Of a stretch of 64,000 bases of DNA, positions 3,587 through 21,410 are shown one piece after another. The first letter of the stretch is position 1. The number at the start of each line of letters is the position of its first letter. The notes beneath the pieces were generated by a model that was given only the letters and a program-made list of their open reading frames with translations, searched no databases and was not told the DNA's origin. The position numbers were made by a program, and so were the translations under genes. Origin of the DNA: Cyanobacteria bacterium P01_A01_bin.123 (lineage in GTDB: Bacteria; Cyanobacteriota; Cyanobacteriia; Phormidesmidales; Phormidesmidaceae); contig JBCBZT010000026.1 in assembly GCA_039815185.1 (NCBI GenBank), forward strand, positions 44,205-108,204, read 5' to 3'.

Positions 3587-4930
3587 CTACCCTTCACCAG
3601 TGACTGAAAGGGCGTCTACCCAAACGCGTGGGCATATTCCACCAGGCGTGATCTCAGCTTCCGGTTCCATATAGATAATGGAATTCAGCACATCCTGGAT
3701 GTCCCCAGCCACCGTGGCCGACTCAATGCTGGTTTTCTCACCTTGATGCAGCATCCAGCCGTCAAAAGGCAGCGAGAAAGACCCTTGCAGGGCATTCACG
3801 CCAGCGTGGAGCGCCTGCAACTCATCGATCCAAATCACATTTTCTGCCGACTCAAGGCTCAAGCTGTCGCTCACCGTCTTACCCGGCAATACATGGTAAA
3901 AGTTCGCCCCAACACTAACTTTGGCCCCAATGCTGGCATGGCCTGTGGGTTTAGCCTTGAGTCGTTTGGCTGTCCCTGCACTATGCAAGAAGTTTGCCAG
4001 AATCCCATCCGTAATCAGGGGCAGTCGCCGGGTTGGGGTGCCTTCGCCATCGAAGGTTTCAGCTGAAATATTCTCCGGGTGTAGCGCATCATCGTAAACC
4101 GTCAGCAGCGGTGAGGCAACTTGCGTCCCTAACGACTCAGGCGTAGACAAACTACGCTTATCTAAAATGCTCTGGGCATTAAACAGATTAGAAAACGCGC
4201 TCAGCAAGCTGAGAAACGCCTCAGCAGAAAATACCACCGGGTACTTGCCAGACTGGATTTTTTCATAGTTGAGGTGGCTAATGATTTTATCCGCGGCTTC
4301 TTTGAGGCAACCTGCAGTATCCAGTTGTGACAGCCCACTTTGGATACGCATGGCTCCTGCTGCTCGAGGTTTGCGGCCCTCTTGTTCAGTTTTGCCATAC
4401 AGATAAATCGAGGCGTAGGTGCGGGCCTCCTGGCGCAGGGCACCATTACTATTGAGATAAAATCGCTCAATATCTCGTTGGGCTAAGCCGTTATAGGGCA
4501 CACTCGCGATCGCGTCGTGAGCTTCCAACAGCGTTTTCTCCGCCGCCACCAGTTTTTCAATCAAGTTCGAGACAGGAGCCTGGGGTTGCGATTCCACCTC
4601 AACATTAGCCGTGGGCGCAGTGGCTTCTGGGCTAAAGTCAGGGACATGCTCCTTAGCCCCAAAATCACTGGCTTCTTGGGCAGTTTTCAGCGCCAACTCT
4701 AACCCGGTCGTATCTAAATCCGTCGTGGTGGTCACCCCCAAGCGATCGTCATTATTCCACACCCGCACAATCACGCTAGAGCGGTTGGAAGCTTTAACTT
4801 GCTTGGGTTCCCCTCTATCTACCTGCACGCTGGTTTCGTCTACAGACGATCCGTAAATGTCGTATTTAGCAATTCCTAGCTTCTTCGCTGTGGTTTCGGC
4901 TTGAGCCGCAATATCTTGGATCTGCGTCAT
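3587..4930 (-). CDS. tldE: TldE/PmbA family protein
   Basis: FDGEGTP motif, no HExxxH, C-terminal TVAGD; lies directly downstream of tldD. Confidence 0.9.
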   Translation of the reverse strand: MTQIQDIAAQAETTAKKLGIAKYDIYGSSVDETSVQVDRGEPKQVKASNRSSVIVRVWNNDDRLGVTTTTDLDTTGLELALKTAQEASDFGAKEHVPDFSPEATAPTANVEVESQPQAPVSNLIEKLVAAEKTLLEAHDAIASVPYNGLAQRDIERFYLNSNGALRQEARTYASIYLYGKTEQEGRKPRAAGAMRIQSGLSQLDTAGCLKEAADKIISHLNYEKIQSGKYPVVFSAEAFLSLLSAFSNLFNAQSILDKRSLSTPESLGTQVASPLLTVYDDALHPENISAETFDGEGTPTRRLPLITDGILANFLHSAGTAKRLKAKPTGHASIGAKVSVGANFYHVLPGKTVSDSLSLESAENVIWIDELQALHAGVNALQGSFSLPFDGWMLHQGEKTSIESATVAGDIQDVLNSIIYMEPEAEITPGGICPRVWVDALSVTGEG

Positions 4931-4932
4931 GG

Positions 4933-6417
4933 TTATCGTCCTCCCACGGTAATCGCATCCACTTTTAGGTGGGGTTGACCCACGGTCACATAAATACTGC
5001 CGCTAACCGAGCCACAAAAGCCCGGTGCCAGACCCAAATCATTGGAGCACATGGAAATCCGATCCATAATTTCGGTTGCTTCACCAATCAGCGTTGCGCC
5101 CTTCAAGGGCTTGGTCAGCTTACCATTCTCAATCAGATAGGCTTCACTCACCGCGAAATTGAATTGCCCCGTTGGCCCGACGCTACCGCCGCCCATTTTC
5201 TTGCAGTAAATGCCTTTGTCAATGGAGGCGAACAAGTCATCAATACTGTGCTCACCCGGTGCGATATAGGTATTACGCATGCGAGATGCCGCAGCATAGG
5301 TATAGCTTTGCCGTCGGCCACTGCCCGTGCGCGGGTGTCCAGTCCTCATAGAACCCGCTCGATCGGACAGGAAATTCTTCAACACGCCGTTTTCAATCAG
5401 CAGGGTACGTTGGGCAGGCATCCCCTCATCGTCCATGTCAATGGTGCCAAACTCATCGTCGGTTAATCCCTCATCCCAGGCGGTAAGGTTTTCGTGGGCG
5501 ATTTTTTCACCCTTTTTATCCATAAAAGGCGTTGTCCCCCGTTCGATTTGGGTGGTTTCGAGCAGGTGACCGCAAGCTTCATGGAAAATGACGCCGCCAA
5601 AGTGATTAGCCATCACAATTGGGTAGGTGCCCGACTCAACGTAGTCGGCATAAAGCATTTTGCCCGCCGCCTCAGAGACCTGATCGGCGGTGTCGTTATA
5701 GTCCCAAGTTCTCAGGAAGGCTGGATCGCTAGTATCGCCTACCCGCTGCCCAATGGAAGAGCGATGGCTACCATCGGCACACAACAAGTTGTAGCCAACC
5801 GATTGGGTGAGGCGAATGTCACGGGCGAAAGTGCCGTCACTAGAGGCCACCAGTACCTCTTGCCAATCACGGAAATAGGCTGCACGGCGCGACTGGACGT
5901 GGCTAGCCTTTTGCTCCAGAGCAGCGTTGGCCGCCAGCAGCACGTCCCCCATCTCCTGCATTGAGCTGCACTGTGCTAGCCAGGGCTCTTTGTTACGGGC
6001 GATCGCGTAGTCACGCAATAACTCCAAGTTGATTTCTGGCACGTGGGCATTGGGACTGGGTAGCGTCAACCCCATGATCGACAATCCCTTTTCCAAAGCA
6101 GCCTTCAACCCGTTAAAACTCAAGTCATTGGTGCTGACATAACAATCTGCTTTGCCCAAAAATACCCGTACCCCAGCCCCCGTAACTAATCGAGGCGAAA
6201 TGCTGGTAATCGCATCATCCTCAGCCTGGGCACTGATATAGTTGTTGCGCTCTAAGAAAAACTCAATAAAATCTGCCCCAGCAGCTCGCCCTAGCCCCAA
6301 CAGAGTCGAGAGGGGCTTTTCCCACGACTGATCAAAGCGATCGCGGGTGGCATGGTAGTGCAACGATGGGATCTCCTTAGACCGGAGAAATATAGGAGAG
6401 GGGGTAGCCAGAGTCAT
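4933..6417 (-). CDS. tldD: TldD family metalloprotease
   Basis: HEACGH zinc motif, DDEG, RMRNT and GFCG..VGQP motifs. ATG at 6417 (MTLATP) preferred. Confidence 0.92.
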
Positions 6418-6643
6418 GCAATCCTTATTCCTTAAGTGAATAGACGCAATTATTTCAGGTCTTCTCAGTCTAACAAACTGTTGAGAGATGAGAGAAACCG
6501 CGTAGGGCATCCCGCTATAAAGCTCATTGAAAAAGCTCAACTAACCCGTCAAAAGAAGAATATCGTATCTTTACAGCCGAGCTTGATTGAGCACTCCATC
6601 TCACATCCCAGTTTTTTCAACACCCTACGTATTTTTTCTTAGA

Positions 6644-6761
6644 CTAGATAGAATCACTTAACTTTGTCTAATGGACAATCACCCTAAAAAGTGCTTTTTC
6701 TCGAGAAAAAAAATTTAGCCAGTGATCTCCTAAGAATTTATCCCTAGATAGAATTACTTAA
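6644..6761. promoter_or_regulatory. 18-bp direct repeat CTAGATAGAAT(C/T)ACTTAA, two copies exactly 100 bp apart, in the tldD/NRPS divergent intergenic region
   Basis: Copies at 6644-6661 and 6744-6761 match at 17/18 positions; a regulatory role is inferred. Confidence 0.5.
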
Positions 6762-7190
6762 GCTTAGCCAGAAAGCACCTCTAAATTGGCTCAAAAAAAT
6801 ATATTCATAATGATTGAGGAACTCTCAGAGCTTTTCTATTTCAAATACATGCCACTTCACTTCAGTCAATAGAGAAAAGCTCGAAAAAGCGTTCAATTTG
6901 AGTTTTAGAGAATCCGTCATATGGCTTAGTCAATCCCCGAATCCGCTGGGAATGATCAGATTGGAGCACCTTTGGTATAGGTTCAATCTCATTCTGGATT
7001 TTTCATAAATTTTTGATCTAATTAAATTTTGGCGATTTTCAAAGATCAGAAATATGAGTCTATATAAACGTGAGACCATGCTTTAACCCTGGGCATCAAC
7101 TTTAGTTCTTACAGGATGTCGAGAAGTTTATGCTCTTCAAAATCATCAGGCTGTGGTTTGTTTCTAATTAGGTTGTTGGACAATGGGGAA

Positions 7191-10100
7191 ATGGATTCAT
7201 TTAAGCATAATAATCAGTTTGAAGGCGTACATGTCTGGTTTGAACAGCAAGTTGATAAGGCTCCAGACGCGATCGCTATTGTGTCTGGCATGCAGCAATA
7301 TAGCTATCGAGAACTTAATCACCAGGCGAATCAATTAGCAAGATATCTAAAAAAGTTAGATGTTAAGCCAGAAACACTGATCGGCATCTGCGTAGAGCGA
7401 TCGCCAATTATGATAGTTGCGCTATTAGCCGTGCTAAAAGCTGGTGGTGCATACGTCCCTATTGACCCGACGTACCCTAGAGAAAGAGTCACTCTGATGC
7501 TGGAAGACTCACAGGTACCAATCGTTCTAACCCAGCAACAACATATCTCCAATCTGCCTACCCCCAAAGCCACCATTGTTTGTCTAGATACAGACTGGCC
7601 GGTCATTGCTGAAGAAAAAACAGCCAATTTAGACACAGCAATTACTAGCGACAATTTGGCCTACATCATCTATACCTCCGGCTCTACAGGTAAACCGAAA
7701 GGGGTAATGATCGAGCACCACGCTTTGGCAAATTTCGTTCAGGCGATTGGTCGGAACTACGAGATCATCGCAACTGATCGGGTCTTGCAATTTGCGTCTG
7801 TCAGCTTTGATGTAGCAGTTGAAGAAATCTTTGTCACCTTAGCCAAAGGGGCGACCCTGATCCTACGCTCTCAAGACATGCTGCGGTCTATTCCAGCATT
7901 TCTGGAAACCTGTAAAGCATGGGACTTAACAGTTCTGAATTTACCCACTGCCTTCTGGCACAAAATTTGTGCTGAATTACCCCAGACCGAAATTCCAACC
8001 TGTGTAAGGCTAGTCGTCATTGGTAGCGAACGTGCCATACCCCGTTGGCTGACGATCTGGCAGCAGCATGCCCCAAATCATGTTCGTCTCATCAATGCCT
8101 ATGGTCCAACTGAGGCTACCGTAGGGTCAACTTTATGTGATTTAGCTGGCCCCCATGCGGTAGACACAACCGATAAACGGATACTACCTATTGGTAAACC
8201 GATTGACCACGTACAAATTTACGTCCTGAATCCAGACCTCCAGCCTGTTGGGGTTGGCGTCACTGGTGAGTTATACATTGCTGGGGCAGGGCTAGCTCGT
8301 GGGTACTTAAATCGCCCTGATCTGACTGCCGTTCGCTTTATCTATATGCAATGTGGAGAGGGGCAAATTCGTCTCTATAGGACGGGTGATTTAGTTCGTT
8401 ATCGCGAAGACGGTCACCTCGAATTCCTTGGCCGAAGCGATCATCAGGAAAAAATTCGCGGCTTTCGCATTGAGTTAAATGAAATCGAAACCATCCTGGA
8501 ACAACATTCAAACGTACAGCAGGCGCTGGTTCTGGCGCGGGAAGATGTTCCAGGGGATAAGCGGCTGGTAGCCTATATCGTACTGGCCTCATCCGTATCC
8601 ACTGGCAACCTGCTTGATAAACCAAAGCATCGTTTGGTACCCCATCTCCGCTCTTATCTGCGCGGCAAACTACCCAGTTACATGGTGCCTTCATCATTCG
8701 TGTTACTGAATAGTCTGCCTCTCAGTCCAAATGGCAAGGTTGATCGGCGAGCCCTACCGGCACCTACTGCAGCACGTCCTGCCCTAGATGAAATCTATGT
8801 TGCCCCTTGCACACCACTAGAGCAAACATTGGCTCAACTTTGGTCAGCAGTATTAGGCATCGCTGAAATTGGGGTGAACGACAACTTTTTTGAGCTAGGG
8901 GGTGACTCGCTGCAAACAACCCAGCTCATTTCTCAGATTGAAAAGAACCATCAGGTCGTTATCCCGCTTCTTGACTTTTTCAAAATACCAACCATTAGGG
9001 GACTGGCCATCCTCATTCAGGAAGTTCGGACAGATCAGCAAGTATCTACTGAACATATGACTCTGCCGCAACTGCAAGCACAGGTTGTGCTAGAGGCATC
9101 TATTCAACCGCAATACCTTGCGGAAACAGCAGCCGAGCCCAAAGCCATTTTTCTAACAGGTAGTACTGGATTCGTCGGAGCATTTCTCCTACATGAACTC
9201 CTGCAGCAAACCCAGGCCAAGGTTTATTGCCTGGTGCGGGCTCGACATTTCTCCGAAGTCCATCAAAAAATCTGCACCACCCTAGAACGCTACTTTAATC
9301 AAGTCGAGACCTACTATTCACGTATTATTCCAGTTATTGGCGACCTAGCTCAGCCCCGATTAGGACTAACAGAGCGACGGTTTCAAGCGTTAGCTGACTC
9401 GATTGATGTCATCTATCACTGTGGTGCGAATGTCAATTTGCTTTATCCTTACACAGCCTTGCACAGTACCAATGTAATCGGCACCCATGAGATTTTGAGG
9501 CTGGCAAGTTACGGTCAACCCAAACGTCTCCACTATCTCTCCACCCTGGATGTCTTTGAGTCAGTGGCGAAAACAGGGGTAAAAGTTTTCCATGAGAATG
9601 ACAGCATTGATCGCGGTCAGGGCATCTCTAGCGGCTATGCTCAGAGCAAATGGATTGCCGAGCAGCTCGTGAAGCGAGCTGCCGAACGAGGTTTATCAGT
9701 CTGCATTTATCGACCGGGAATGGTAACAGGGCATAGTCAGAGCGGTCACTCGAACACCGCCGACGTGCTCTGTCGTTTTGTGAAGAGTATGATCCAACTC
9801 CGGCAAGCTCCAGATTTAGATCTGATGCTAGATATGACCCCAGTGGATTATGTGAGCCGGGCAATTGTGCAGCTTTCGTTACAGTCTGAACTATCAGGAC
9901 AAACCTTTCATCTGGTTAACCCTAACCCTCTAGCCTTATCCCAGCTCGTAAATGTGCTATGTACCAGAGGCTTCCCGATTCAGCGGGCTCCCTACTTGCA
10001 GTGGCAGGCCAAGCTCAAACTAGAACCCAATGCCCTCAGTCCGTTGGCTGCGCTCTTAACACAAGCAAACGAAGACGATCAGCGCACTGGCCTAGAAATG

Positions 10101-10280
10101 TGGCTTGGCGGCAGCGATCAGTTTGACTGCACCAACACACACCAAGGCTTACAAAACTCTATTACCTGTCCTTCTGCCAACCCAAAGCTAGTAGACACCT
10201 ATCTCAACTATTTCATCCAGAGTGGCTTTATCCAGGCTACATCTGCTTACTCCGTCTCTACTTCCTTACCCAGTGAATGA
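7191..10280 (+). CDS. Monomodular NRPS-like enzyme: adenylation, thiolation, thioester reductase (A-T-R); no condensation domain
   Basis: A-domain cores YTSGSTGKPKG, NAYGPTE, GELYIAGAGLARGYL, YRTGD, KIRGFRIEL, NGKVDR; carrier motif FFELGGDSL; reductase motifs LTGSTGFVG and GYAQSKW. Start 7191 or 7116. Confidence 0.95.
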   Translation: MDSFKHNNQFEGVHVWFEQQVDKAPDAIAIVSGMQQYSYRELNHQANQLARYLKKLDVKPETLIGICVERSPIMIVALLAVLKAGGAYVPIDPTYPRERVTLMLEDSQVPIVLTQQQHISNLPTPKATIVCLDTDWPVIAEEKTANLDTAITSDNLAYIIYTSGSTGKPKGVMIEHHALANFVQAIGRNYEIIATDRVLQFASVSFDVAVEEIFVTLAKGATLILRSQDMLRSIPAFLETCKAWDLTVLNLPTAFWHKICAELPQTEIPTCVRLVVIGSERAIPRWLTIWQQHAPNHVRLINAYGPTEATVGSTLCDLAGPHAVDTTDKRILPIGKPIDHVQIYVLNPDLQPVGVGVTGELYIAGAGLARGYLNRPDLTAVRFIYMQCGEGQIRLYRTGDLVRYREDGHLEFLGRSDHQEKIRGFRIELNEIETILEQHSNVQQALVLAREDVPGDKRLVAYIVLASSVSTGNLLDKPKHRLVPHLRSYLRGKLPSYMVPSSFVLLNSLPLSPNGKVDRRALPAPTAARPALDEIYVAPCTPLEQTLAQLWSAVLGIAEIGVNDNFFELGGDSLQTTQLISQIEKNHQVVIPLLDFFKIPTIRGLAILIQEVRTDQQVSTEHMTLPQLQAQVVLEASIQPQYLAETAAEPKAIFLTGSTGFVGAFLLHELLQQTQAKVYCLVRARHFSEVHQKICTTLERYFNQVETYYSRIIPVIGDLAQPRLGLTERRFQALADSIDVIYHCGANVNLLYPYTALHSTNVIGTHEILRLASYGQPKRLHYLSTLDVFESVAKTGVKVFHENDSIDRGQGISSGYAQSKWIAEQLVKRAAERGLSVCIYRPGMVTGHSQSGHSNTADVLCRFVKSMIQLRQAPDLDLMLDMTPVDYVSRAIVQLSLQSELSGQTFHLVNPNPLALSQLVNVLCTRGFPIQRAPYLQWQAKLKLEPNALSPLAALLTQANEDDQRTGLEMWLGGSDQFDCTNTHQGLQNSITCPSANPKLVDTYLNYFIQSGFIQATSAYSVSTSLPSE

Positions 10281-11677
10281 CAATGAAAACCATGCTGTCA
10301 GGATCAAAGGTTCTTGCAGAAATTAAGTCTTGCACCATGCTGTCTATTCCCCTAGCAGCCGCCCAAGTTACCGACTCTATCACTGGTTTTGTCGACACCA
10401 TGATGATGGGTTGGCTAGGAAGCCAATCGCTGGCTGCTGGGGCACTAGGCGCGATCTCGTTTAACTATTTATTGTGGATTACCACATCTATTGTCTCTGC
10501 TGTGAGCCCGCTGACAGCGCAAGCCTATGGCAAGGGAAATCCCCAAACCGTAAGGCAGATTTTACAGCAAGGGTTATGGTTAGCAAGCATCTTGGGTGCT
10601 CCCATAACTTTGCTACTTTGGCATGGCGGCACAATCCTGCATTATCTAGGACAAGACCCCAATACGATTGTCTTTACGGAACAATATCTGAAGGCGATCG
10701 CTTGGGGATTTATCCCTGCCATCGGCTTCTCAGTTTTAAAGGGGTTTGTCTCTGCGCTCTCCCACCCACGGGTCGTCATGCTGATGGTGATTTTGGGCGT
10801 TTTGCTTAACATCTGTGGCAATTATGTGCTGATGTTCGGCAAGTTTGGCCTACCAGCTCTAGGGTTAGCTGGTATTGGCTGGGCCAGCACCTTATCACTG
10901 TGGAGCACATTTCTCCTAATGCTGTTATATGTTTCTTGCCGCAAGTACTTTGCCGTCTTCAAACTTTGGTCTAAGCTACAGTTCAACCATCGCATATTGA
11001 GTGAACTATTGCGGGTTGGCTTGCCAATTGGTGGGTTAATGTTAGTCGAAGCTGGTATCAGTGCAGTGGGTACCTTTTTGGCCGGACAATTAGGCACTAC
11101 GTCTCTAGCAGCTCACCAAATTGCCTACCAAACAGCTGGCATTATTACCTATCAGGTTGCCAGTGGCATTTCTATCGCTACCACCATACGCGTAGGCCAG
11201 TTCGTAGGTCAAAATAAGGTTCAAGCGAGCCGTTTAGCCGGATTTGTCGGCATTGGCCTAGCTGGAGCCTGCATGGGGGTATTTAGTCTAGCGTTTGTGC
11301 TAATTCCCAATCAAATTGTGGGGCTATATCTGGATGTGTCTCAGCCTGATACGGCCGATGTTGCAGCCCTTGCTAAAACCCTGCTAATCATTGCTGCACT
11401 GTTTCAAATGATTGATGGGGCTCAAGTCACCGCTGCTGGGGCACTGCGAGGTCTAAAGGATACCCAAGTACCAATGCTCATTGGAATCATGGCTCATTGG
11501 GTCATTGGCCTACCTGTTAGTTATGTGTTGGGTATGCAGTTGGGTTTCGGTGTAGTCGGGCTTTGGTTAGGCGTTGCCACAGGACTAAGCATTGCTGCCA
11601 TTGTCCTCATCTGGCGTTTTAAGACAGAATCTTGGCGAGCTATTCGTCATAGTAATCATGTCTTACGAAACTGTTAG
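10277..11677 (+). CDS. MATE family efflux transporter (NorM-like)
   Basis: About 12 hydrophobic segments; FVDTMMMGWLG, LAAHQIA, GALRGLKDT motifs; overlaps the NRPS stop (ATGA). Confidence 0.93.
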   Translation: MTMKTMLSGSKVLAEIKSCTMLSIPLAAAQVTDSITGFVDTMMMGWLGSQSLAAGALGAISFNYLLWITTSIVSAVSPLTAQAYGKGNPQTVRQILQQGLWLASILGAPITLLLWHGGTILHYLGQDPNTIVFTEQYLKAIAWGFIPAIGFSVLKGFVSALSHPRVVMLMVILGVLLNICGNYVLMFGKFGLPALGLAGIGWASTLSLWSTFLLMLLYVSCRKYFAVFKLWSKLQFNHRILSELLRVGLPIGGLMLVEAGISAVGTFLAGQLGTTSLAAHQIAYQTAGIITYQVASGISIATTIRVGQFVGQNKVQASRLAGFVGIGLAGACMGVFSLAFVLIPNQIVGLYLDVSQPDTADVAALAKTLLIIAALFQMIDGAQVTAAGALRGLKDTQVPMLIGIMAHWVIGLPVSYVLGMQLGFGVVGLWLGVATGLSIAAIVLIWRFKTESWRAIRHSNHVLRNC

Positions 11678-11921
11678 CAACCTAAGACCAAACCAATACA
11701 TCCAAGCCTGATAAATAATTATCGAGTTGGGCACTCTAAGAGCGGGAACAGTTCCTAATTATCAAATATCAATTCATCTTTTTTATAAAAGAGAATTAGA
11801 GGCATTCAGATTCGAGGAATACTACTTAACTCAAAACCAAAAATATCTGCTGATTACCTGAAAGAACTTTAACATTTCTTCACTGTCTACGCCATCTCTC
11901 AGAAACTGATAGGTTTGCAAA

Positions 11922-14858
11922 ATGAGACTGCCATTCAATCGATTAAGACGTACAGATCAATATCAACGTAAAATCCCCCTGCGACTGATCTTGGTGGTAC
12001 CGTTTGTTGTAGAAATATCTGCTGCAGTAGGCTTAACAGGTTATCTCTCACTGCAAAATGGCCAACGAGCCGTCAACGAATTGGCGGGCCGACTTAGATA
12101 TGAAGTCAGTAATCGAATTGATCAGGAGTTAGATCAGTATCTAACCATAGCTCAGCGGGTTACCCAGAATAATGGTGCCGCTTTCGATTTAGGCTTATTA
12201 AACCCAGAGAACTTAGAGCAACTAGGTCACTATTTCTGGCAGCAAATGCAGATTTATCCCGTTGGCTACATTCTCTATGGAACCACATCTGGAGATATGG
12301 CGGCTGCAGGAGACTATTTCGAAAACGGGCAGATCGCAATTCACGAATCTTCACCTCGCTTACACCAGAATTCTAGTCTGTATACCTACCTCACTGATGA
12401 GCAAGGGAATCGAACTGAACTAGGCGAAGTATTGCCTGATCATTCTTTCTATCAAGAAGGGTGGTATGCCGAAACCATTCGCTTAGGTCGTCCTAGTTGG
12501 ACTCCGATTTATCAGTGGGAAACAGCGCCTTACACCTTATCTGTGGCGATCGCCCGTCCCGTTTATGATCCATCAGGAGAAATTATTGGCAGTATCGCTA
12601 CAGAGCAGCCTCTGTCTGAAATCGGTGATTTTTTGAAAAACCTAAACGTCAGTCCCTCGGGCAAAACATTTATCCTGGAGCGTGATGGTTCACTGGTTGC
12701 AAGTTCCAGTGAGGAAGAACCTTACACATTAGTTGATGGCAAACCAGAGCGATTACAAGCAACAGATAGCTCTGATCCATTTATTCAATCTACGGCCGAT
12801 TACCTGATAGCAAGGTTTGGAGATCTGAATAATATTACTGTTTCACAACAGATTGATTTTTGGATTGAAGATCAGCACCAGTTTGTTCAAGTTACGCCTT
12901 GGCAAGATGAGCTTGGATTAGATTGGCTCATGGTGGTAGTAGTCCCAGAGTCCGATTTCATGGAACAGATCGAGGCTAATACTCGCACAACAATCATCCT
13001 TTGTCTAATGGCCCTGGTCGTTGCACTTGTATTGGGATATTTTACGTCTCGCTGGATTGCTGAACCTATTCTCCAGATTAGCCATGCCTCAGAGGCGATC
13101 GCCAATGGAGATCTTGATCAAACAGTAGAAGCCTCAAACGTGAACGAGCTTAATGTACTTTCTCATGCATTCAACCGCATGGCTCAGCAACTGAAGGAAT
13201 CTTTCACAGCCTTGGCCAAGACTAATGAAGAACTAGAACTCCGTGTAAAGCAACGTACCCTTGAACTACAAGAGGCAAAGGAGTCCGCCGAGGTTGCTAA
13301 TACTGCCAAGAGCGAGTTTTTAGCCAATATGAGCCATGAATTGCGAACCCCAATGAACGCCATCATTGGCTATAGCGAAATGTTACAAGAAGAAGCTGAA
13401 GAGATGAATGAAGACATCTTTAGCCAAGATTTAAATAAAATTCACGGTGCAGGCAAACATCTCCTAAATCTAATTAATGACATACTAGATTTATCAAAAA
13501 TTGAAGCTGGTCACATGGAACTTTTCTTAGAAAACTTTCAGATCAGAGACCTAATTAATGAAATAGAAGCAACTATTTCACCACTCATTGAGAAGAATAA
13601 AAACCAACTAATCATCCATTGCCCTGAAGGGATCGGTAGCATAAAGGCCGACCTCACAAAAGTTCGTCAGTCACTACTTAATCTGCTAAGTAATGCCTCT
13701 AAATTCACTCAACAAGGGACAATAGCCCTGACCGTGAGTCGTTACAGTTTTAATGAACAGCCTTGGCTGAGCTTTAAGGTGAGCGATAGTGGCATTGGGA
13801 TGACATCAGAACAGATGAAAAAGTTATTCCAAGCATTTAGTCAAGCCGACGCTTCAACCACTCGAAAATATGGTGGTACAGGTCTAGGTTTAGCGATTAC
13901 TAAGAAATTTTGTGAAATGATGGGAGGAACCATCGAAGTAGAAAGTCAGATCAACAAAGGCAGTACCTTTAGTATAAATTTACCAGCAGAAGTTGGTACA
14001 AAATTATCTGACAGCGAGGTGAACAAATTAACTGCTCCTGAAAGCCTTAGTCCTCGAAAATCAACGGTTTTGGTTATTGATGACGATCCTGCAGCCCAGG
14101 ATATTCTCCAGCGTTTTCTCAATAAGCAAGGATTTGATGTTATCGCAGCAAGCAACGGTAAAGAAGGACTAAGATTAGCCGAAGAGAAACAGCCAGATGC
14201 CATTACTTTAGATGTGATGATGCCAGAGATGGATGGCTGGGAAGTTTTGAGCAAGTTAAAAGCTAATCAGACAGTCGCCCATATCCCAGTCATTATGATG
14301 ACTATGGTAGACAACAAGAATTTAGGATATGCCTTAGGCGCAGCTGATTACCTTCTTAAACCCGTCGATCGCCAACAATTAGCATCAGTCCTCCAAAAGT
14401 ACCAGATCAAAAAATCTCCATCTATTCTACTCGTCGTAGAAGATGACTCGATTACTCGTGAAATGCTAAAGCGACAACTAGACATAGAAAATGTCAAAGT
14501 TATTGAGGCTTCCGATGGAAGACAAGCGCTCAGCCTCATGCAATCGACAAAGCCAGGCGTCATTATTCTTGATTTAATGATGCAAAATATGGATGGTTTC
14601 GAGCTCATTTGCCAGCTTCAAAATCAACCTGATTGGCAGTCAGTTCCGGTAGTGGTTATTACAGCTAAAGAACTCACAAGAGCAGAAAGAGAATACCTCA
14701 ACAGTCGGGTTCAGCAAATCTTCCAAAAAGGTGCTTATGATCGCAACACCTTACTTAATGAGGTAACCAGTCTGCTTTCTAAGGCATTAGACCAAGGAAA
14801 ACCTGATAATCAAGAATCTACTCTAGATGAACCCAATAATGTCTTGATTGAGAAGTAA
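11922..14858 (+). CDS. Membrane hybrid sensor histidine kinase (TM, Cache-like periplasmic domain, TM, HAMP, HisKA, HATPase, two REC domains)
   Basis: [19 protein letters not shown]-box, [24 protein letters not shown]; two receivers (TLDVMMP, ILDLMMQ); [10 protein letters not shown] resembles dCache. Confidence 0.93.
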
Positions 14859-14947
14859 AGGATAGAATTTTCAGACACCGCTGAGACAAAGAGTCAGAAG
14901 TAAGAAATATTAGTTTTGATCAACTTAGAAATTTAAGGAGAGAAACC

Positions 14948-15325
14948 ATGACCAAAATACTCTTGGTTGAAGACAACGAAATGAATCAAGATATGCTGTC
15001 GAGGCGATTAGTTCGCAAAGGCTATGACATCATTATTGCTTCAGATGGGGCCGAAGGATTAGCCAAGTCAAAATCAGACAATCCCGATCTAATTCTCATG
15101 GATATGAGCTTACCTGTGATCGATGGTTGGGAAGCAACTCGACAGCTAAAGGCAGACCCGAAGACCCATACCATTCCAGTGATAGCGCTAACGGCCCATG
15201 CTATGTCAGGCGATCGAGAAAAAGCATTGGCAGCCGGTTGCGATGATTATGACACAAAGCCAATTGAGCTCGCACGACTAATCAACAAAATCAAGAATTT
15301 GCTGCAGCAAGGACAGCTTGTATAA
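14948..15325 (+). CDS. Single-domain response regulator (CheY/DivK-like)
   Basis: ILLVEDN, LMDMSLP, ALTAHAM, KP motifs; AAGGAG ribosome-binding site upstream. Confidence 0.93.
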   Translation: MTKILLVEDNEMNQDMLSRRLVRKGYDIIIASDGAEGLAKSKSDNPDLILMDMSLPVIDGWEATRQLKADPKTHTIPVIALTAHAMSGDREKALAAGCDDYDTKPIELARLINKIKNLLQQGQLV

Positions 15326-15351
15326 GGGTGTTGGCACACCCTTATACAAGC
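15316..15351. repeat. Perfect 16-bp inverted repeat with 4-nt loop spanning the response regulator stop codon
   Basis: GCTTGTATAAGGGTGT-tggc-ACACCCTTATACAAGC; no T-tract on either side. Confidence 0.85.
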
Positions 15352-15449
15352 CTTATCTCAGAAACTTGAACCTAACCTAAGTCAATCTAGATCCTTGAGA
15401 GTGCCCTATATAAGGGTTGGCGATCAATTTTTATCAAAAATCACTGGCT

Positions 15450-17237
15450 ATGATTGCTAATTTTGAGATTACAACTTCCCTCCTAGCATTCTGGCGTCAT
15501 GAACTGTATGCGCCTCTCAATACTATTCAAGGATATAGTGGCCTAATTATTGATGAATTGGAAGATCAATATGGCTCTCAGAGGGATAATAACGTCATTG
15601 AAATCTTGTCTAGCATCTTAAAATTCAGCAAAGAGATTCAGGAAATCATTGGCAACACACTTGATTCTAAAATCTTAGATGATAGAGAATGTGTTCGCAA
15701 TATCATCGATTTAAGATATCTGTTAGAACAAAAGCTAATCAACAAGATTGACCAAATCAACCTGGACGTGCAAAGGATATTAACAGAGTATTCTATAGGA
15801 TTTGATTCAGATCTAGACAAGATTATAAAGTCTACTCATAACTTGAAGAGCTTATTGAGCGGCAATTTGCTTTGGTTGAAGGATTTCTCACCAACTGTTG
15901 AGCCCTCTCAACCTGAAAATAATTTTGTTGGCTTGAAAAAGAGCACAGATCAAAACAAATCAACGCTTAGTGATATAGAGCAATCTCTGAGGATTATCAG
16001 GCATACCCACTATGATAGACAATACAACCCTCAAGACTTTAAAATTTTAGTTGTTGACAATAATAGAAGTAATCAAGAGCTACTCTATCGTCAACTTGAG
16101 CGGGAAGCCTACCATGTCGATACAGTAGAATCTGGGGAAGAAGCAATCCAAGTAATTCAGGATAAAAACTATGACTTAATCCTTCTAGATATCATAATGC
16201 CGGGGTTGAATGGCTACCAAGTGCTGCATTATTTAAAGTGTAGCCAGTGGAAAAATATACCTGTCATTATGATCTCTTCCCTGAATGAGATAGATAGTAT
16301 TACAAAATGCATCGAAATGGGTGCAGAAGATTACCTACCTAAACCTTTCAACTTTACTCTGCTAAGGGCTAGGATAGACGCTTGCTTAGAGAAGAAAGAC
16401 TTACAAGATCAAGAAAAGATCTTTATTAATCAGCTGGCTTCTGCAAATAAAGAAATCGAAGCACTTAATGACAAGCTAAAAGCTGAGAATATTAGACTGT
16501 CAACTGAGCTAGAGATTACTCGCCGACTACAGCAACTAATCTTACCAAAAGATTCTGAGCTTAGAGAGATTGAAGATATTGATATCGCTGGATTCATGGA
16601 GCCTGCTGAAGAGGTCGGAGGAGACTACTATGATGTCCATGAATATAACGGAAGCGTTAATATCAGCATTGGAGATATTACAGGTCACGGTCTTGAAAGT
16701 GGACTGTTGATGATCATGGTTCAAACAGCTATTCGAACATTAATTGAAAATAACGAAACAGATCAGAAAAAGTTATTAAATACACTCAACCAAATTATTA
16801 TCAATAACGCCAAAAGAATTGAATCAGAGCGAAATTTAACACTTTTACTGATCAACTATGTTAAAGGAACCTTGAGCATTGCAGGTCAACATGAAGACAT
16901 TGTTATCGTTCGTGCCAGCGGCCAGATAGAACGTATCGATACTACCTATTTAGGGTTCCCAATTGGACTAGAAGAAGATATCAAGAGTTTTATCCACGAA
17001 ACTCAATTGAGTCTATCTTCGGGAGACGTCATGATTCTTTATACCGATGGAATCACAGAAGCAGAGAGTGAATGTGGAAACCAGTATGGCATGGAACGTC
17101 TTTGTGACACAGTCCGAAAGAATCGTATGCACCCAGCTAAAACAATCAAAAAAATGGTGATTGATGATTTAAGAGCACACATCGGAGAAAATAAAATTTT
17201 AGATGATTTAACCCTGCTTGTTCTGAAGCAGAAATAA
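15450..17237 (+). CDS. HisKA-like helix, REC and SpoIIE/PP2C phosphatase fusion (RsbU/SiaA-like)
   Basis: N-terminal RHELYAPLNTIQGYS; REC LLDIIMP; PP2C motifs VGGDYYD, GDITGHG, YTDGITEA, DDLTLL. Confidence 0.9.
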   Translation: MIANFEITTSLLAFWRHELYAPLNTIQGYSGLIIDELEDQYGSQRDNNVIEILSSILKFSKEIQEIIGNTLDSKILDDRECVRNIIDLRYLLEQKLINKIDQINLDVQRILTEYSIGFDSDLDKIIKSTHNLKSLLSGNLLWLKDFSPTVEPSQPENNFVGLKKSTDQNKSTLSDIEQSLRIIRHTHYDRQYNPQDFKILVVDNNRSNQELLYRQLEREAYHVDTVESGEEAIQVIQDKNYDLILLDIIMPGLNGYQVLHYLKCSQWKNIPVIMISSLNEIDSITKCIEMGAEDYLPKPFNFTLLRARIDACLEKKDLQDQEKIFINQLASANKEIEALNDKLKAENIRLSTELEITRRLQQLILPKDSELREIEDIDIAGFMEPAEEVGGDYYDVHEYNGSVNISIGDITGHGLESGLLMIMVQTAIRTLIENNETDQKKLLNTLNQIIINNAKRIESERNLTLLLINYVKGTLSIAGQHEDIVIVRASGQIERIDTTYLGFPIGLEEDIKSFIHETQLSLSSGDVMILYTDGITEAESECGNQYGMERLCDTVRKNRMHPAKTIKKMVIDDLRAHIGENKILDDLTLLVLKQK

Positions 17238-17273
17238 AAGCAGATAGTTTTTTGACGTCCATCATATTTAAAT

Positions 17274-17843
17274 ATGACTTTAATTTTAGGAGATTTTATT
17301 GAGTACCTCCCGTCCAAAAGGGATTCTGCAACAATCAACTTTACATTTAGCTACAACTCAGCCAATCATCAGTATTTAAATAATCACTTATCATTTGGCA
17401 TTATCGCCATCCATATGCTTAAGTCTATTGGAATTCAGTTTTCAAATAATGCCACAGGCAAAGAAAATGAGATCAGAAATTCTGTTGACTATATTGCTAA
17501 TGAACTGTTAGAAAACTCAATCAAGTATGGCGAACATTCTTTCCATGAAATCAATATCGAAATTCACGTCTTTGAATGTAGAGTTGTTATTATATCGACA
17601 AATTTAGTTAATGAGCTTAGAGAAAAATTGTTTCAAACATATATTCAGAAAATAATTACTTCAGATGTCTCAGAATTATACTTCAAGCAGTTAGAAGAGA
17701 ATATTGACAACAACCAAAAATCTGGGCTTGGTTTATTAACGATTATAAATGATTATAAAGCTAAAGTTGGGTGGAAATTTGAATCTTCCGACCATGGATA
17801 CGGGACTTTAAGTTCTGTAATGGTTCAGCTCCCAGCATCTTAG
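17274..17843 (+). CDS. GHKL-fold anti-sigma-factor-like Ser/Thr kinase (Slr1658/SiaB-like)
   Basis: N-box ANELLENSIKY and G-box SGLGLLTI; sits between a PP2C gene and a STAS gene. Confidence 0.75.
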   Translation: MTLILGDFIEYLPSKRDSATINFTFSYNSANHQYLNNHLSFGIIAIHMLKSIGIQFSNNATGKENEIRNSVDYIANELLENSIKYGEHSFHEINIEIHVFECRVVIISTNLVNELREKLFQTYIQKIITSDVSELYFKQLEENIDNNQKSGLGLLTIINDYKAKVGWKFESSDHGYGTLSSVMVQLPAS

Positions 17844-17895
17844 ACACATAAACACTTGAATTAACCCTAGTACAAAAGGATAAGCTGTCAAATTC

Positions 17896-18243
17896 ATGAA
17901 TAATAAACTCGCAAAGTACTCGATCCATTATGACAGCGAATCTGAAACTATTAGCTTTAGCGGCAAGCTACGCTTTACCCAAACAGATCCTGAGTTTGCT
18001 GAGATCTCAGAATTGTTAAAAACAGTCCTTGAAAAGGATCCGCCACAGATTACACTCAACTTGGAAGAGTTAGAATTTTTGAACAGTCTAGGTATCAGCA
18101 TGATTTCGAAGTTCATCATAAAGATTAGAAATAAAAAGAGTATTCACGCAATTGTTAAAGCTTCTCATGAAATTTCTTGGCAGGGTAAGTCTTTAGTGAA
18201 TTTACAACGAATTATGCCCAGCCTCGAATTTACATGGGTATAA
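17896..18243 (+). CDS. STAS-like anti-anti-sigma protein (Slr1659/SiaC-like)
   Basis: LEELEFLNSLGISMISKF resembles the SpoIIAA phospho-Ser loop; ISWQGKSLVNLQRIMP C-terminal motif; 115 aa. Confidence 0.75.
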   Translation: MNNKLAKYSIHYDSESETISFSGKLRFTQTDPEFAEISELLKTVLEKDPPQITLNLEELEFLNSLGISMISKFIIKIRNKKSIHAIVKASHEISWQGKSLVNLQRIMPSLEFTWV

Positions 18244-18352
18244 ATAGAAAAGAATACTTTCATTCTTTGGAGAGTTCTACTTCTTCTATTGGGGAGCTTT
18301 TTCTCTCAAGATATAAAAATCCCACAAAAATGTAGATAAGCCGAAGAGAGAT

Positions 18353-20518
18353 ATGAGTGAGATTGACGTTATGGAGAAGACCAATAAGAATCAAAAGCTT
18401 CAACAAATCTGGCTTCCTAGAAATCAAAATGAAAGCTCTTTTGTGGATGATCTTACAGGCTTACCAAATCGCAATTTGCTTTTACAAAAACTTCAAGACA
18501 ATATAGCCTTTTGCAAAGAACATTCAAATAAGACGCTTGCACTTCTGGTCTTAGACATCGATCACTTCAAGGTTGTTAACAATAGCTTGGGTATTGCAGT
18601 AGGCGATCAGCTACTTATAAAAGTTGCTGAAAGACTTCAAGACATTATGCGATTTGATGATTATGTTGTACGTCTTGGCGGAGACGAGTTTGCAGTTGTA
18701 CTGAATAACATAAAAGATATTGATAACATCCATAAAATCGCATCCAGAATTCATGACGGATTAATGCTCCCGTTTTGTCTAAATGACAATGAAGTATTTA
18801 TTAACACAAGTATGGGAATTACCCATAGCCATGTGAGTTTCGGGAAAGCAGAAGACTTTTTCCGAGATGCTGATACGGCCATGAATTACGCAAAATCTTT
18901 GGGGCGCTCATGCCGCGTAATTTTCCAGCCAGAGATGCATAAGAGCGTTGTTCAACGCCTCAATTTAGGAAACTCATTGAGGCAGGCACTCAGCCGAAAA
19001 GAATTCTTCTTAGAGTATCAGCCTATCGTCTCTCTGGATGAAGAGATCTTGGTAGGATTTGAAGCGCTTATTCGTTGGAAGCACCCACAGCAAGGTACTA
19101 TTCCACCATCAGACTTTATTCATCTAGCTGAGGAAATAGGTCTCATTGAACCTATTGGCCAGTGGGCACTTGAAGAGGCCTGCCAACAGACAAAAGCTTG
19201 GCAGGTGCAGTTTGAAGGTATGCAAGATCTAACAATCAGTGTAAATTTGTCCGCCAAACAAATTTTCGACAATAATTTCTTTACGCAAGTAAAAACAGCC
19301 TTAGCAAAATCTGAACTTGAGCCATGCTGTCTAAAGCTAGAAGTCACCGAAAACATTCTGCTGGAAGACAAGAAAAAAGTAGCGGCTGTGCTAGATAATG
19401 TTAGATCTCTAGGTGTCCAAATTTCAATTGATGATTTTGGCACAGGCTATTCTTCTCTCAGTTATTTAATGCACTTCCCTTTTGACGTATTAAAGCTGGA
19501 CACTTCTTTTACAGAAGGCATTGACAATAACTATAAAAAATTCAACCTTGTCAAAGGTATTCTCACTTTAAGTCAAGGCCTAGACGTTGAAGTTGTTGCT
19601 GAAGGTTTAGAAACTCAAGATCAGCTTTTACAGTTTAAGGCTTTGAAATGCAGATATGGACAGGGATATATTTTTTCAAAACCTTTGAGTAAGCAGAAGG
19701 TTGAAAGTTTTATTTTATCAAATCTCATCGGCCTCAAAAATTCAAGCCTCGAAAGAGAAACTTGCCTGTTTCACGAGCAATTAGATATCTCACAAAAAGA
19801 CGAATTAAGCAGAGACGAATTACTTATAAAGATAGAGAATTTAAAGTTTGAGGTAAAGGAATTAAAGCAAGAAAAGAAAGATTTTGAGATTCTTTTAGAA
19901 ACGGCTGAAAGCCATGCAGAAGTGATTGAACATGAACTTCATCAGGAAATATTTGAGCATCAGAGTACAGAGCTTAAATTACAGTTAACTAATCATCAAC
20001 TACAACAATTAAGCTACATTGACGGTTTGACTAAAGTTGCCAATCGTCGCCATTTCGATGAGTATTTATGCCAGGCATGGAAATGTGCAACTAAGGAACA
20101 GAAGCCAATTTCACTAATTCTTGCTGATGTCGATTTTTTCAAGCGCTACAACGATAAGTATGGCCATCAAGTCGGTGATTATTGCTTGGTTCGAATAGCT
20201 CAAGCTTTGGCAAAGATCGCAAACCGATCAGCAGACTTAACCGCACGGTATGGAGGTGAAGAATTTGCATTGATTCTGCCTGAATCCAGGCCAGAAAGGG
20301 CTGTGGAGGTAGCTGAGAACATTCGCTCAGCTGTAAAATCACTTAAGATTCTTAATCCTCATTCTTCTGTTAACGATTATGTAACTATCAGTTCAGGTAT
20401 AGTTAGTGTTGTGCCACAAGATTTTTATTCACTTAGTGATTTTATTGGGCACGCTGACAAAGCACTATATAACGCAAAGAATCGAGGTCGGGACTGTTTC
20501 AATATCCTTCCTTGGTAG
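18353..20518 (+). CDS. c-di-GMP enzyme: GGDEF-EAL-coiled coil-GGDEF
   Basis: RLGGDEF; FEALIRW, EVTE, DDFGTGYSSL, AEGLET; heptad-like linker; second cyclase RSAD..RYGGEEF. Confidence 0.93.
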   Translation: MSEIDVMEKTNKNQKLQQIWLPRNQNESSFVDDLTGLPNRNLLLQKLQDNIAFCKEHSNKTLALLVLDIDHFKVVNNSLGIAVGDQLLIKVAERLQDIMRFDDYVVRLGGDEFAVVLNNIKDIDNIHKIASRIHDGLMLPFCLNDNEVFINTSMGITHSHVSFGKAEDFFRDADTAMNYAKSLGRSCRVIFQPEMHKSVVQRLNLGNSLRQALSRKEFFLEYQPIVSLDEEILVGFEALIRWKHPQQGTIPPSDFIHLAEEIGLIEPIGQWALEEACQQTKAWQVQFEGMQDLTISVNLSAKQIFDNNFFTQVKTALAKSELEPCCLKLEVTENILLEDKKKVAAVLDNVRSLGVQISIDDFGTGYSSLSYLMHFPFDVLKLDTSFTEGIDNNYKKFNLVKGILTLSQGLDVEVVAEGLETQDQLLQFKALKCRYGQGYIFSKPLSKQKVESFILSNLIGLKNSSLERETCLFHEQLDISQKDELSRDELLIKIENLKFEVKELKQEKKDFEILLETAESHAEVIEHELHQEIFEHQSTELKLQLTNHQLQQLSYIDGLTKVANRRHFDEYLCQAWKCATKEQKPISLILADVDFFKRYNDKYGHQVGDYCLVRIAQALAKIANRSADLTARYGGEEFALILPESRPERAVEVAENIRSAVKSLKILNPHSSVNDYVTISSGIVSVVPQDFYSLSDFIGHADKALYNAKNRGRDCFNILPW

Positions 20519-20574
20519 TTTTGCGTTTGATCGATCGCTACAATCTAAAGCTTAGGCAGCTTTTCCCCTAAACT

Positions 20575-21207
20575 ATGCCAGATGTCCACCTAATCCGACA
20601 CCCCCTTGTCCAACACAAGCTTACTATCATGCGGCAAGTGGACACCAGTACTGCTAAATTTCGAGCATTACTCAAAGAAATCAGCATGCTGTTGGCCTAT
20701 GAGGTTACCCGTGATCTACCTTTGAAAGCAGAAACTATTCAAACCCCTTTGGCAACAATGGAAGCACCGGTATTAGCACCTGACAAGAAGATGGTGGTGG
20801 TATCGATTATGCGAGCAGGGCAAGGCATTCTCGACGGCATTTTGGAACTGATTCCGTCTGCAAGGGTGGGGCACATTGGGCTCTACCGCGACCCGCGTAC
20901 CCATGTAGTGATTGAGTATTACTTTAAAGTACCCCAGGATGTCGCTGGGCGCGATTTCTTGGTCGTCGACCCGATGATTGCGACGGGAAATACTGCGATC
21001 GCAGCCGTCAACCGCCTCAAGCAAATTAATCCCCAATCCCTTCGTTTTATGTGTCTGTTAGCTGCCCCAGAAGGTATTGCTCAATTCCACCAAGCCCACC
21101 CTGATGTGCCGCTCTACACTGCTGCCATTGATGACAAGCTTGATGAGCACGGCTATATCTTACCGGGCTTAGGAGATGCAGGCGATCGCTTGTTTGGCAC
21201 ACGCTAG
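20575..21207 (+). CDS. upp: Uracil phosphoribosyltransferase
   Basis: [39 protein letters not shown]. Confidence 0.97.
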
Positions 21208-21410
21208 ACCATCAAACCTTTAAACCGTTTCCGCATTCTGAATCGGCGTTTTGCTTATGGGAACTCCACATGCTGGGCTAGCCTGGATGTATAGCGCTGG
21301 CCAGATTGCTTAGTGCACCGAGTATCGCCATGATGCTGAGTACACAAGCAATCTGGCTCGCGGTAGGCACAAAGCTTTGTGCGCTACCGCCATAGCTTCA
21401 AGCCATAATC

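Follow-up and report, generated by a model that had tools for sequence, protein, structure and literature searches.

A candidate synthase-receptor pair in cyanobacteria: a stand-alone A-T-R enzyme, a matched dCache sensor kinase and a predicted c-di-GMP output cassette

In several quorum-sensing systems, among them RpfF/RpfC/RpfG, PhcB/PhcS/PhcR and CqsA/CqsS, a signal synthase adjoins a hybrid sensor kinase; Rpf ends in cyclic diguanylate (c-di-GMP) turnover and Phc is followed by a REC-kinase. To our knowledge, density sensing in aggregating, gliding or mat-building cyanobacteria is largely open. Here we describe a block of eight genes from Cyanobacteria bacterium P01_A01_bin.123, located in a stretch of 64,000 nucleotides of contig JBCBZT010000026.1 (the window). 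The block begins with a nonribosomal peptide synthetase (NRPS) composed of adenylation (A), thiolation (T) and reductase (R) domains, followed by a MATE transporter, a hybrid kinase with a periplasmic dCache domain and an output cassette ending in a c-di-GMP enzyme. We propose that the A-T-R enzyme likely loads arginine and releases a carboxyl-reduced product, that the adjacent dCache kinase is likely its receptor, and that the two would constitute one synthase-receptor pair within a family of cyanobacterial cell-to-cell signals, a reading to which we assign a probability of roughly 0.65.

Several described systems resemble parts of this block. The A-T-R enzyme HamD makes the quorum signal valdiazen in Burkholderia cenocepacia (PMC5878181), and the available account of the Pvf system leaves its receptor to future work (PMC10194917). 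ATRed of Xenorhabdus indica is likewise a minimal A-T-R enzyme, which makes a pyrazine through dimerisation of the released amino aldehyde; its substrate is phenylalanine and, within the accessible part of the source, it is described without a linked sensor or signalling role (PMC7586950). On the output side, Thr68 of SiaC in the SiaABCD system of Pseudomonas aeruginosa inserts between the stalks of the cyclase SiaD (PMC8457831). Finally, slr1658/slr1659 of Synechocystis PCC 6803 have an iron-recovery and pgr5 phenotype and a signalling chain stated to be unknown (PMC7555055, PMC6525291, citing Zer et al. 2018); in the accessible portions of these papers they are described with no link to a synthase or to c-di-GMP.

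The initial annotation had placed eight co-directional genes between the core genes tldD and upp, and our coordinates and domain assignments agree: eight open reading frames (ORFs) occupy the + strand at 7191-20518, all intact by ORF reading and domain scan. The features on the synthesis and sensing side are:

7191-10280, + strand: stand-alone A-T-R NRPS-like reductase, predicted to activate arginine and proposed as signal synthase (AMP-binding, PP-binding and NAD_binding_4 domains)
10277-11677, + strand: MATE transporter, candidate exporter (domain scan)
11922-14858, + strand: hybrid sensor kinase of chimeric origin, arranged as transmembrane segment-dCache-transmembrane segment-HAMP-HisKA-HATPase-REC-REC (domains and trees)
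12042-12986, + strand: periplasmic dCache domain of this kinase (alignments to solved dCache receptors, structure model and Foldseek)

The synthase carries its A, T and R domains in one chain without a condensation (C) domain, is of the ATRed type, and scores above the cut-offs of models TIGR01733 and TIGR01746. Eight of its ten pocket residues equal those of the arginine-activating AerM of Nodularia, whose pocket code is given in Table 2 of PMC3765200; the two differ at positions 330 and 331. Among solved structures, ApnA A1 matches the pocket region best (127 bits vs 47 for the next); it accepts arginine and tyrosine (PMC8402340). On this comparison the window synthase is predicted to be Arg-type, and the R domain of AerM gives argininal and argininol ends (PMC3765200). 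The window genome contains three matches to the phosphopantetheinyl transferase family. Across the A-T-R family we distinguish at least five pocket classes; the Lys, Gly, Ala and Pro labels used below for related enzymes are presumptive, being assigned by specificity code.

To place the window locus among its relatives, A-T-R homologues were drawn from searches of 61, 401 and 173 genomes, the latter two being overlapping sets where combined (401 + 173); the large searches scored 2-7 candidates per genome. Loci with a full-length or near-full-length match in a frame of about 650-1075 residues were fetched, and their neighbours were read for the counts at A-T-R loci. A membrane sensor kinase lies within one gene of the synthase at 38 of 49 stand-alone A-T-R loci in other cyanobacteria, including two loci cut by a contig end, two with split sensor genes and one with a permease-like sensor (L047). 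The remaining 11 comprise two contig-limited loci and nine that have no membrane sensor kinase; five of the nine form a single Pro-type clade, four of them with a soluble kinase a few kb away and with a FIST protein where this was checked, and another, L011, is probably a cut longer enzyme. Longer C-A-T-R-type enzymes, used as controls, had a sensor neighbour in 0 of 5 cases (two of them contig-limited). In the reverse direction, an A-T-R gene lies upstream in 39 of 40 loci of the Ala/Gly-type sensor (31 of 32 without eight seen before), a figure that is biased because the search patterns derived from linked sensors. These loci come from records titled Nostoc, Trichormus, Calothrix, Microcoleus, Phormidesmis, Spirulina, Geitlerinema and others. 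An A-T-R/sensor locus in a record titled as a Rhizobium metagenome-assembled genome (L073), groups among the cyanobacterial ones, by binning error or transfer.

The conserved unit is therefore the NRPS with its sensor, not the NRPS with the MATE. The MATE gene of the window overlaps the NRPS stop by 4 bases, and the initial annotation suggested searching cyanobacterial genomes for this pair together with the kinase cassette. The pair did not prove conserved: a MATE gene lies near 2 of the 49 A-T-R loci (L003 and L191) and a methyltransferase-bearing locus, L205, at 35-37% identity, and we rejected NRPS+MATE as a conserved unit. In the closest loci its place is taken by a 199-residue membrane protein (L001:12270-12869, L179-L187), which accompanies both Arg- and Lys-type synthases; its predicted fold resembles the KDEL receptor (template modelling score 0.74) and SemiSWEET/PQ-loop proteins (0.66), below the bar for a family name. 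At L179 the frame of this protein continues into a Mutator transposase.

Sensor domains change together with the amino-acid choice of the enzyme. The four other loci with an Arg code, L179-L182, have sensors 65-72% identical to the window dCache domain, and the clade they share with it has a support of 99 in the Shimodaira-Hasegawa-like approximate likelihood-ratio test (SH-aLRT). There the kinase gene sits upstream of the NRPS in divergent orientation, with a core that shares only 42-44% identity with that of the window. The window kinase core instead shares 80% identity with that of L201 (Pro-type), 72% with that of L001 (Lys-type) and 67% with that of L052 (Ala-type). The sensors of these three loci match the window sensor at 27% over a short stretch, at 43% and not at all, respectively; kinases resembling the window core head the same REC/PP2C/slr1658/slr1659/cyclase cassette. 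The trees of the two kinase halves disagree. Approximately unbiased (AU) tests, with groups picked after seeing the trees, reject grouping the window with L001 for the sensor (p 2e-35) and with L179-L182 for the core (p 7e-5). Judged by these alignments and trees, the window kinase is a chimera of an Arg-type sensor and a cassette-type core. Because the sensors match across the divergent L179-L182 loci despite a different core, the Arg-type pairing outlasted both an inversion and a change of kinase core. Furthermore, the sensors of five of the six Lys-code loci fall into a clade of their own (SH support 100), and across the loci read the sensor type is specific to each pocket class, with Lys-code enzymes using several. 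That sensor domains were swapped along with the amino-acid choice across cyanobacteria points to a private chemical signal and its receptor as the likely explanation. As in quorum-type systems, synthase and candidate receptor are linked and co-vary, and the comparative case for a matched pair, made from sequence, is strong.

The ligand pocket of the sensor provides a second line of evidence. The dCache_1 model scores 42 bits, below the Pfam cut-off of 45; the structure model (mean predicted local distance difference test, pLDDT, 92.8) has the dCache fold. Alignments to solved receptors place kinase Glu179 (12456-12458) at the position of PctA Arg126 and Glu228 (12603-12605) at that of PctA Asp173. 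At the dCache_1AA motif positions Tyr121, Arg126, Trp128, Tyr144 and Asp173 the kinase has His, Glu, Trp, Tyr and Glu. It shares the fold of the dCache_1AA and dCache_1AM receptors (PMC10104139) and retains Trp128 and Tyr144, whereas Arg126 and Asp173 are both Glu. The loss of Arg126 is as in the AM receptors, whose motif has a terminal Asp and an Arg103/Asp133 insertion, but the terminal Asp is replaced by Glu. Arg126 binds the ligand carboxyl and, in the available text, is not kept in amine receptors (PMC10104139); its replacement by Glu is as expected if the ligand carboxyl is reduced. The acidic position would fit a ligand that lacks a carboxyl and has gained charge, and we infer that an amino alcohol, cyclic amine or piperazine is favoured over a neutral pyrazine.

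Position 126 is Arg in 16 of 17 paralogues of the window genome and Glu in the window sensor. Among 50 window-family sensors from five genomes (two gapped rows were dropped from this scoring), 40 have Arg at this position, 7 have Glu or Asp and 3 another residue; all four NRPS-linked sensors are acidic, and in G000 (the window genome), G010, G033 and G052 the linked sensor is the sole acidic copy (1 of 18, 8, 5 and 5, respectively). In Ala/Gly- and Pro-type sensors the position, read by eye, is Glu and Gln; the profile comparison of both sensor families aligned only downstream of it. We rejected the acidic residue as a marker exclusive to NRPS-linked sensors, orphan acidic sensors being common. 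Since acidic sensors also stand alone, the enzymes probably became paired with members of wider amine-sensing subfamilies. Two variants of the sensing component were also seen: in the kinase that follows a Gly-type A-T-R gene at L047:6843-9956 a large permease-like membrane domain replaces dCache (by eye; no Pfam match there), and one sensor kinase of the window genome (G000:C82:120538-122784, L149), a member of the wider Ala/Gly-like family, is an orphan that lacks an NRPS in its vicinity.

Several of our observations weigh against a dedicated pair. Lys-code enzymes occur with at least four sensor types (the L001 group, L184, L141-L143 and L147-L148). Gly-type sensors form one clade, and L093/L098 switched A-domain code yet kept a Gly-type sensor. 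A looser profile search of the wider Ala/Gly-like sensor family, with matches in 36 of 301 genomes, found an NRPS within 1.5 kb in only 10 of 30 loci, or 11 with one inferred behind a known spacer gene; all eight tight-subtype loci of this search are among those 11. Sensors with an acidic position 126 have no NRPS in 12 of the 17 top-scoring wide-flank loci, nor in three further cases in G023, and Foldseek with the dCache model ranks amine and amino-acid receptors alike. Likewise, the MATE is not conserved in the A-T-R family, and 4 of 12 orthologues of the output cassette described below have no NRPS, six of the eight linked ones being a single Pro-type clade. Finally, within the Ala/Gly family the partial Mantel correlation of the sensor is 0.36 with the R domain and 0.30 with the A domain, and neighbouring genes are co-inherited; co-evolution beyond linkage was not shown there, as the correlations fit gene order alone.

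These Mantel values would equally be expected if enzyme and kinase were linked with no ligand relation, that is, if a kinase that senses amines controls the small biosynthetic gene beside it, or simply accompanies it, and the match arises from block inheritance and recombination. Many sensors of the same subfamilies lack an NRPS, one crossover near HAMP can yield a chimeric kinase, and in both G023 and G008 the same class of enzyme and a related sensor sit on separate contigs, all as this explanation would have it. We nevertheless consider it improbable: the Arg-type match survives inversion and kinase-core change, unrelated sensor families each came to adjoin an A-T-R enzyme, and the linked sensor is the only Arg-less paralogue (scored as the only acidic copy) in the four genomes above. 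The synthase-receptor reading itself is based on gene order, domains, lasting adjacency, matched swapping and the loss of the carboxylate-binding Arg.

Downstream of the kinase, the window carries the following output cassette:

14948-15325, + strand: single-domain receiver, REC (domain scan)
15417-17237, + strand: soluble HisKA(no ATPase)-REC-PP2C phosphatase, with a possible alternative start ATG at 15450 (weak HisKA, REC, SpoIIE)
17274-17843, + strand: slr1658-superfamily GHKL-type protein (DUF6272), predicted Ser kinase of the STAS protein (NF047703)
17896-18243, + strand: slr1659-superfamily STAS-like switch protein, Ser64 codon at 18085-18087 (NF047705)
18353-20518, + strand: GGDEF-EAL-coiled-coil stalk-GGDEF protein (domain scan)
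about 19880-19936, + strand: stalk motif of the latter protein, predicted STAS docking site (predicted complex)

The genes first labelled GHKL kinase and STAS are present and can now be given family names. The DUF6272 protein scores 151 bits with NF047703 and the STAS-like protein 131 bits with NF047705 (cut-off 100 for each), which places both in the same superfamilies as slr1658 and slr1659 of Synechocystis PCC 6803; the two genes are adjacent here and each is single-copy in the window genome. In the set of 61 genomes, slr1658 is above cut-off in 22 and adjoins slr1659 in 22 of 22 loci read, mostly with a PP2C protein and proteins sharing a coiled-coil motif. With this distribution, slr1658/slr1659 is a general cyanobacterial switch.

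The cassette is a plug-in. Twelve full-length loci orthologous for the HisKA-REC-PP2C protein were found in the 173 + 401 genomes, four further fetched loci with other PP2C architectures being excluded; eight of the twelve follow an A-T-R enzyme and Cache kinase, comprising one Arg-type, one Lys-type and six Pro-type loci, with the NRPS split in one case. Split or partial cassettes accompany Ala-type pairs at L052 and L055, so that the same six-gene output occurs behind synthase/sensor pairs of four different types. The single receiver is 72-83% identical among related cassettes. Most A-T-R/sensor pairs feed other outputs, namely a REC-kinase, and the pair of the window is likely wired to a c-di-GMP switch. 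In L210, L211 and L213 the cassette is preceded by another kinase, a pair of NMT1-type binding proteins and a divergent aminotransferase, with a DHDPS-like enzyme and an SMR exporter also present in L211; this is perhaps a different signal-making module on the same output.

GC content drops along the block, from 0.48 in the NRPS and MATE genes through 0.43 for the kinase to 0.33-0.39 in the genes between PP2C and cyclase inclusive (genome 0.50). Such a drop between MATE and cassette, together with the frequency of the slr1658/slr1659 switch elsewhere, might suggest that an NRPS-MATE pair inserted by chance upstream of an unrelated signalling cassette. We regard this as highly improbable and already contradicted by the comparisons, since the same gene order recurs without the MATE in G010, G562 (twice), G447, G688, G778 and G659, and the NRPS is matched by the sensor half of the kinase. 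The initial annotation had named independent occurrence of NRPS-MATE and cassette in relatives as the outcome that would speak against it, and half of this is what we find: NRPS+MATE is not conserved and slr1658/slr1659 is common alone, but NRPS and sensor are kept together. Of the make-export-sense-respond circuit it proposed, the link between making and sensing is thus strongly supported by genome context, with the NRPS travelling with a matched dCache sensor, whereas a conserved NRPS+MATE pair is not.

A structural prediction suggests how the switch may act. The complex of the STAS protein with the cyclase stalk scores 0.86, the best of three controls scoring 0.00; the score mark is reached by 116 of 157 solved pairs and 2 of 215 mismatched pairs. 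Contact agreement between runs is at least 89% and partner pLDDT at least 87, and Ser64, which is invariant, contacts stalk residues 43, 46 and 47. The STAS protein is accordingly modelled as binding the stalk dimer of the cyclase with Ser64 at the stalk motif, although the pass may reflect likeness because the solved SiaC-SiaD complex is alike. In the GGDEF-EAL-GGDEF protein, cyclase, I-site and EAL signature residues are present in the translation, as read by eye.

In the mechanism that we propose, the A-T-R enzyme would load arginine and release argininal, which would probably undergo further reduction or condensation to give a cationic amine; the MATE would export the product. Ligand binding would set the flow of phosphate from the kinase through its own receivers, the HisKA domain of the PP2C protein and the single receiver, the PP2C protein being the likely end point of the phosphorelay. 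PP2C and the slr1658-type kinase would together set the phosphorylation of Ser64. Unphosphorylated STAS protein would bind the stalk and, in the way that SiaC acts on SiaD, activate the C-terminal cyclase in opposition to the EAL domain.

The same matching would arise if the sensor detected the product as a local cue for self-monitoring and not as a population signal, the product being a defensive or housekeeping metabolite (an argininal-type protease inhibitor, or an osmotic or nitrogen overflow amine) whose build-up in sheath or periplasm the kinase reports. All comparative evidence shows matching rather than cell-to-cell use, most loci lack an adjoining exporter, and argininal/argininol end groups are known from cyanobacterial protease inhibitors (PMC3765200). 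The family nevertheless varies the amino acid over its five or more pocket classes, adds methyltransferases and keeps a matched sensor, which is the pattern of private signal alleles; moreover, the outputs are purely regulatory, and the window block contains neither a resistance gene nor a target gene. We judge self-monitoring unlikely, if the most credible of the alternatives, and prefer the synthase-receptor pair.

Some synthases carry additional domains. A PilZ-like domain (Pfam) lies inside the A subdomain at L082:4358-7765, L147:5219-9463 and L148:4899-9734, and likewise in L073, L086 and L090; it retains only the second Arg of the c-di-GMP motif and would make c-di-GMP feedback on signal synthesis possible. 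In the literature searched, no description of this insert in such synthases was found. L141-L143 and L205 are A(methyltransferase)-T-R proteins with a Lys-type code, an NNMT/PNMT-family methyltransferase and a sensor clade of their own, and such proteins were frequent among the matches of one homologue search.

The features flanking the block, and a hairpin within it, are:

4933-6540, - strand: tldD, flank of the block
15316-15351, + strand: perfect 16-bp hairpin across the receiver stop codon, single copy in the genome
20575-21207: upp, flank of the block

The block is real and no assembly artefact, because an independent contig from a sequencing run of another study spans 4832-21312 in one unbroken piece at about 97% identity (513 differences). 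The sequencing runs containing block DNA are marine and coral metagenomes; among the runs listed, none is RNA data, and a metagenome scan using the window NRPS as query gave no match. In a same-genus genome, tldD and upp sit on separate short contigs. The hairpin (z -4.75, no U-run) may stabilise the transcript or act in attenuation ahead of the PP2C gene; promoter and terminator scans were at chance level (31 vs 30.5 and 13 vs 12.8 expected). At a short element after upp (21290-21400), contig depth is very high and loose ends are numerous in four runs, as for a dispersed repeat. A class A beta-lactamase-family protein (58-1347) and a caspase-domain protein (26244-27803) elsewhere in the window are unrelated to the finding.

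Beyond the window, the pairs probably constitute an undescribed family. Its widest form, put forward tentatively and at slightly less than even odds, is a widespread quorum-sensing family of filamentous and mat-forming cyanobacteria. In it, minimal A-T-R enzymes would use Arg, Lys, Gly, Ala or Pro, in some cases with N-methylation, to make amines with a reduced carboxyl; cognate dCache kinases would recognise these amines, and their outputs, the slr1658/slr1659 c-di-GMP switch among them, would be interchangeable. The parts list is small, with a single enzyme and a single soluble sensor domain, and the predicted substrates fall into at least five classes. Arg-less dCache sensors thereby gain a likely ligand class, and docking of the STAS protein to a cyclase stalk becomes a likely mechanism for slr1658/slr1659, whose chain is stated to be unknown in PMC6525291. 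If true, the proposal would give cyanobacteria a defined autoinducer-receptor system and provide the first genome-predictable receptors for NRPS-derived signals. In line with the initial annotation, which did not recognise such a system as described in cyanobacteria, we found no description of A-T-R/dCache pairs or of a cyanobacterial Sia-like switch in the literature searched, which covers few subscription journals and no supplements.

How, then, does the locus compare with described systems? It shares with Rpf, Phc and CqsA/CqsS the synthase adjoining a hybrid sensor kinase, and most A-T-R loci resemble Phc in the REC-kinase that follows; those systems differ in their fatty-acid-derived signals, synthase folds and sensor domains. 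With Ham/valdiazen and Pvf/Mgo (PMC5878181, PMC10194917) it has in common a single A-T-R enzyme, the core of a diffusible amino-acid-derived signal there and of a proposed one here. As described in the available text, Ham/Pvf/Mgo clusters need an N-oxygenase and further enzymes; the domain scan found no diiron N-oxygenase and no HamA/HamE-type partner among the eight genes of the window, which lies outside that group and differs further in its adjoining matched dCache kinase, cyanobacterial host and predicted arginine substrate. SiaABCD (PMC8457831), whose logic the initial annotation had seen here, holds as a distant analogue but not as a family: shared are a PP2C protein, a GHKL-type kinase, a small STAS-like protein and a cyclase with a helical stalk; insertion of the phospho-residue into the stalk dimer, as in SiaC-SiaD, is predicted. 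SiaA, however, is a membrane-bound PP2C with a periplasmic sensor, whereas the window PP2C is soluble, without a sensor domain and apparently driven by a His-Asp relay; SiaC (DUF1987) is phosphorylated at Thr68, whereas the window protein has Ser64, weak STAS matches and no SiaC family match. The SiaB model (NF038262) gives 24 bits against a cut-off of 85 and the SiaD model 257 against 290, and the window cyclase is joined to a GGDEF-EAL pair, with a single stalk motif where SiaD has two. Taken together, and by analogy, the pair would work like a synthase-receptor quorum pair with an output like that of SiaABCD, the A-T-R enzyme as a source of quorum signals being already known from HamD.

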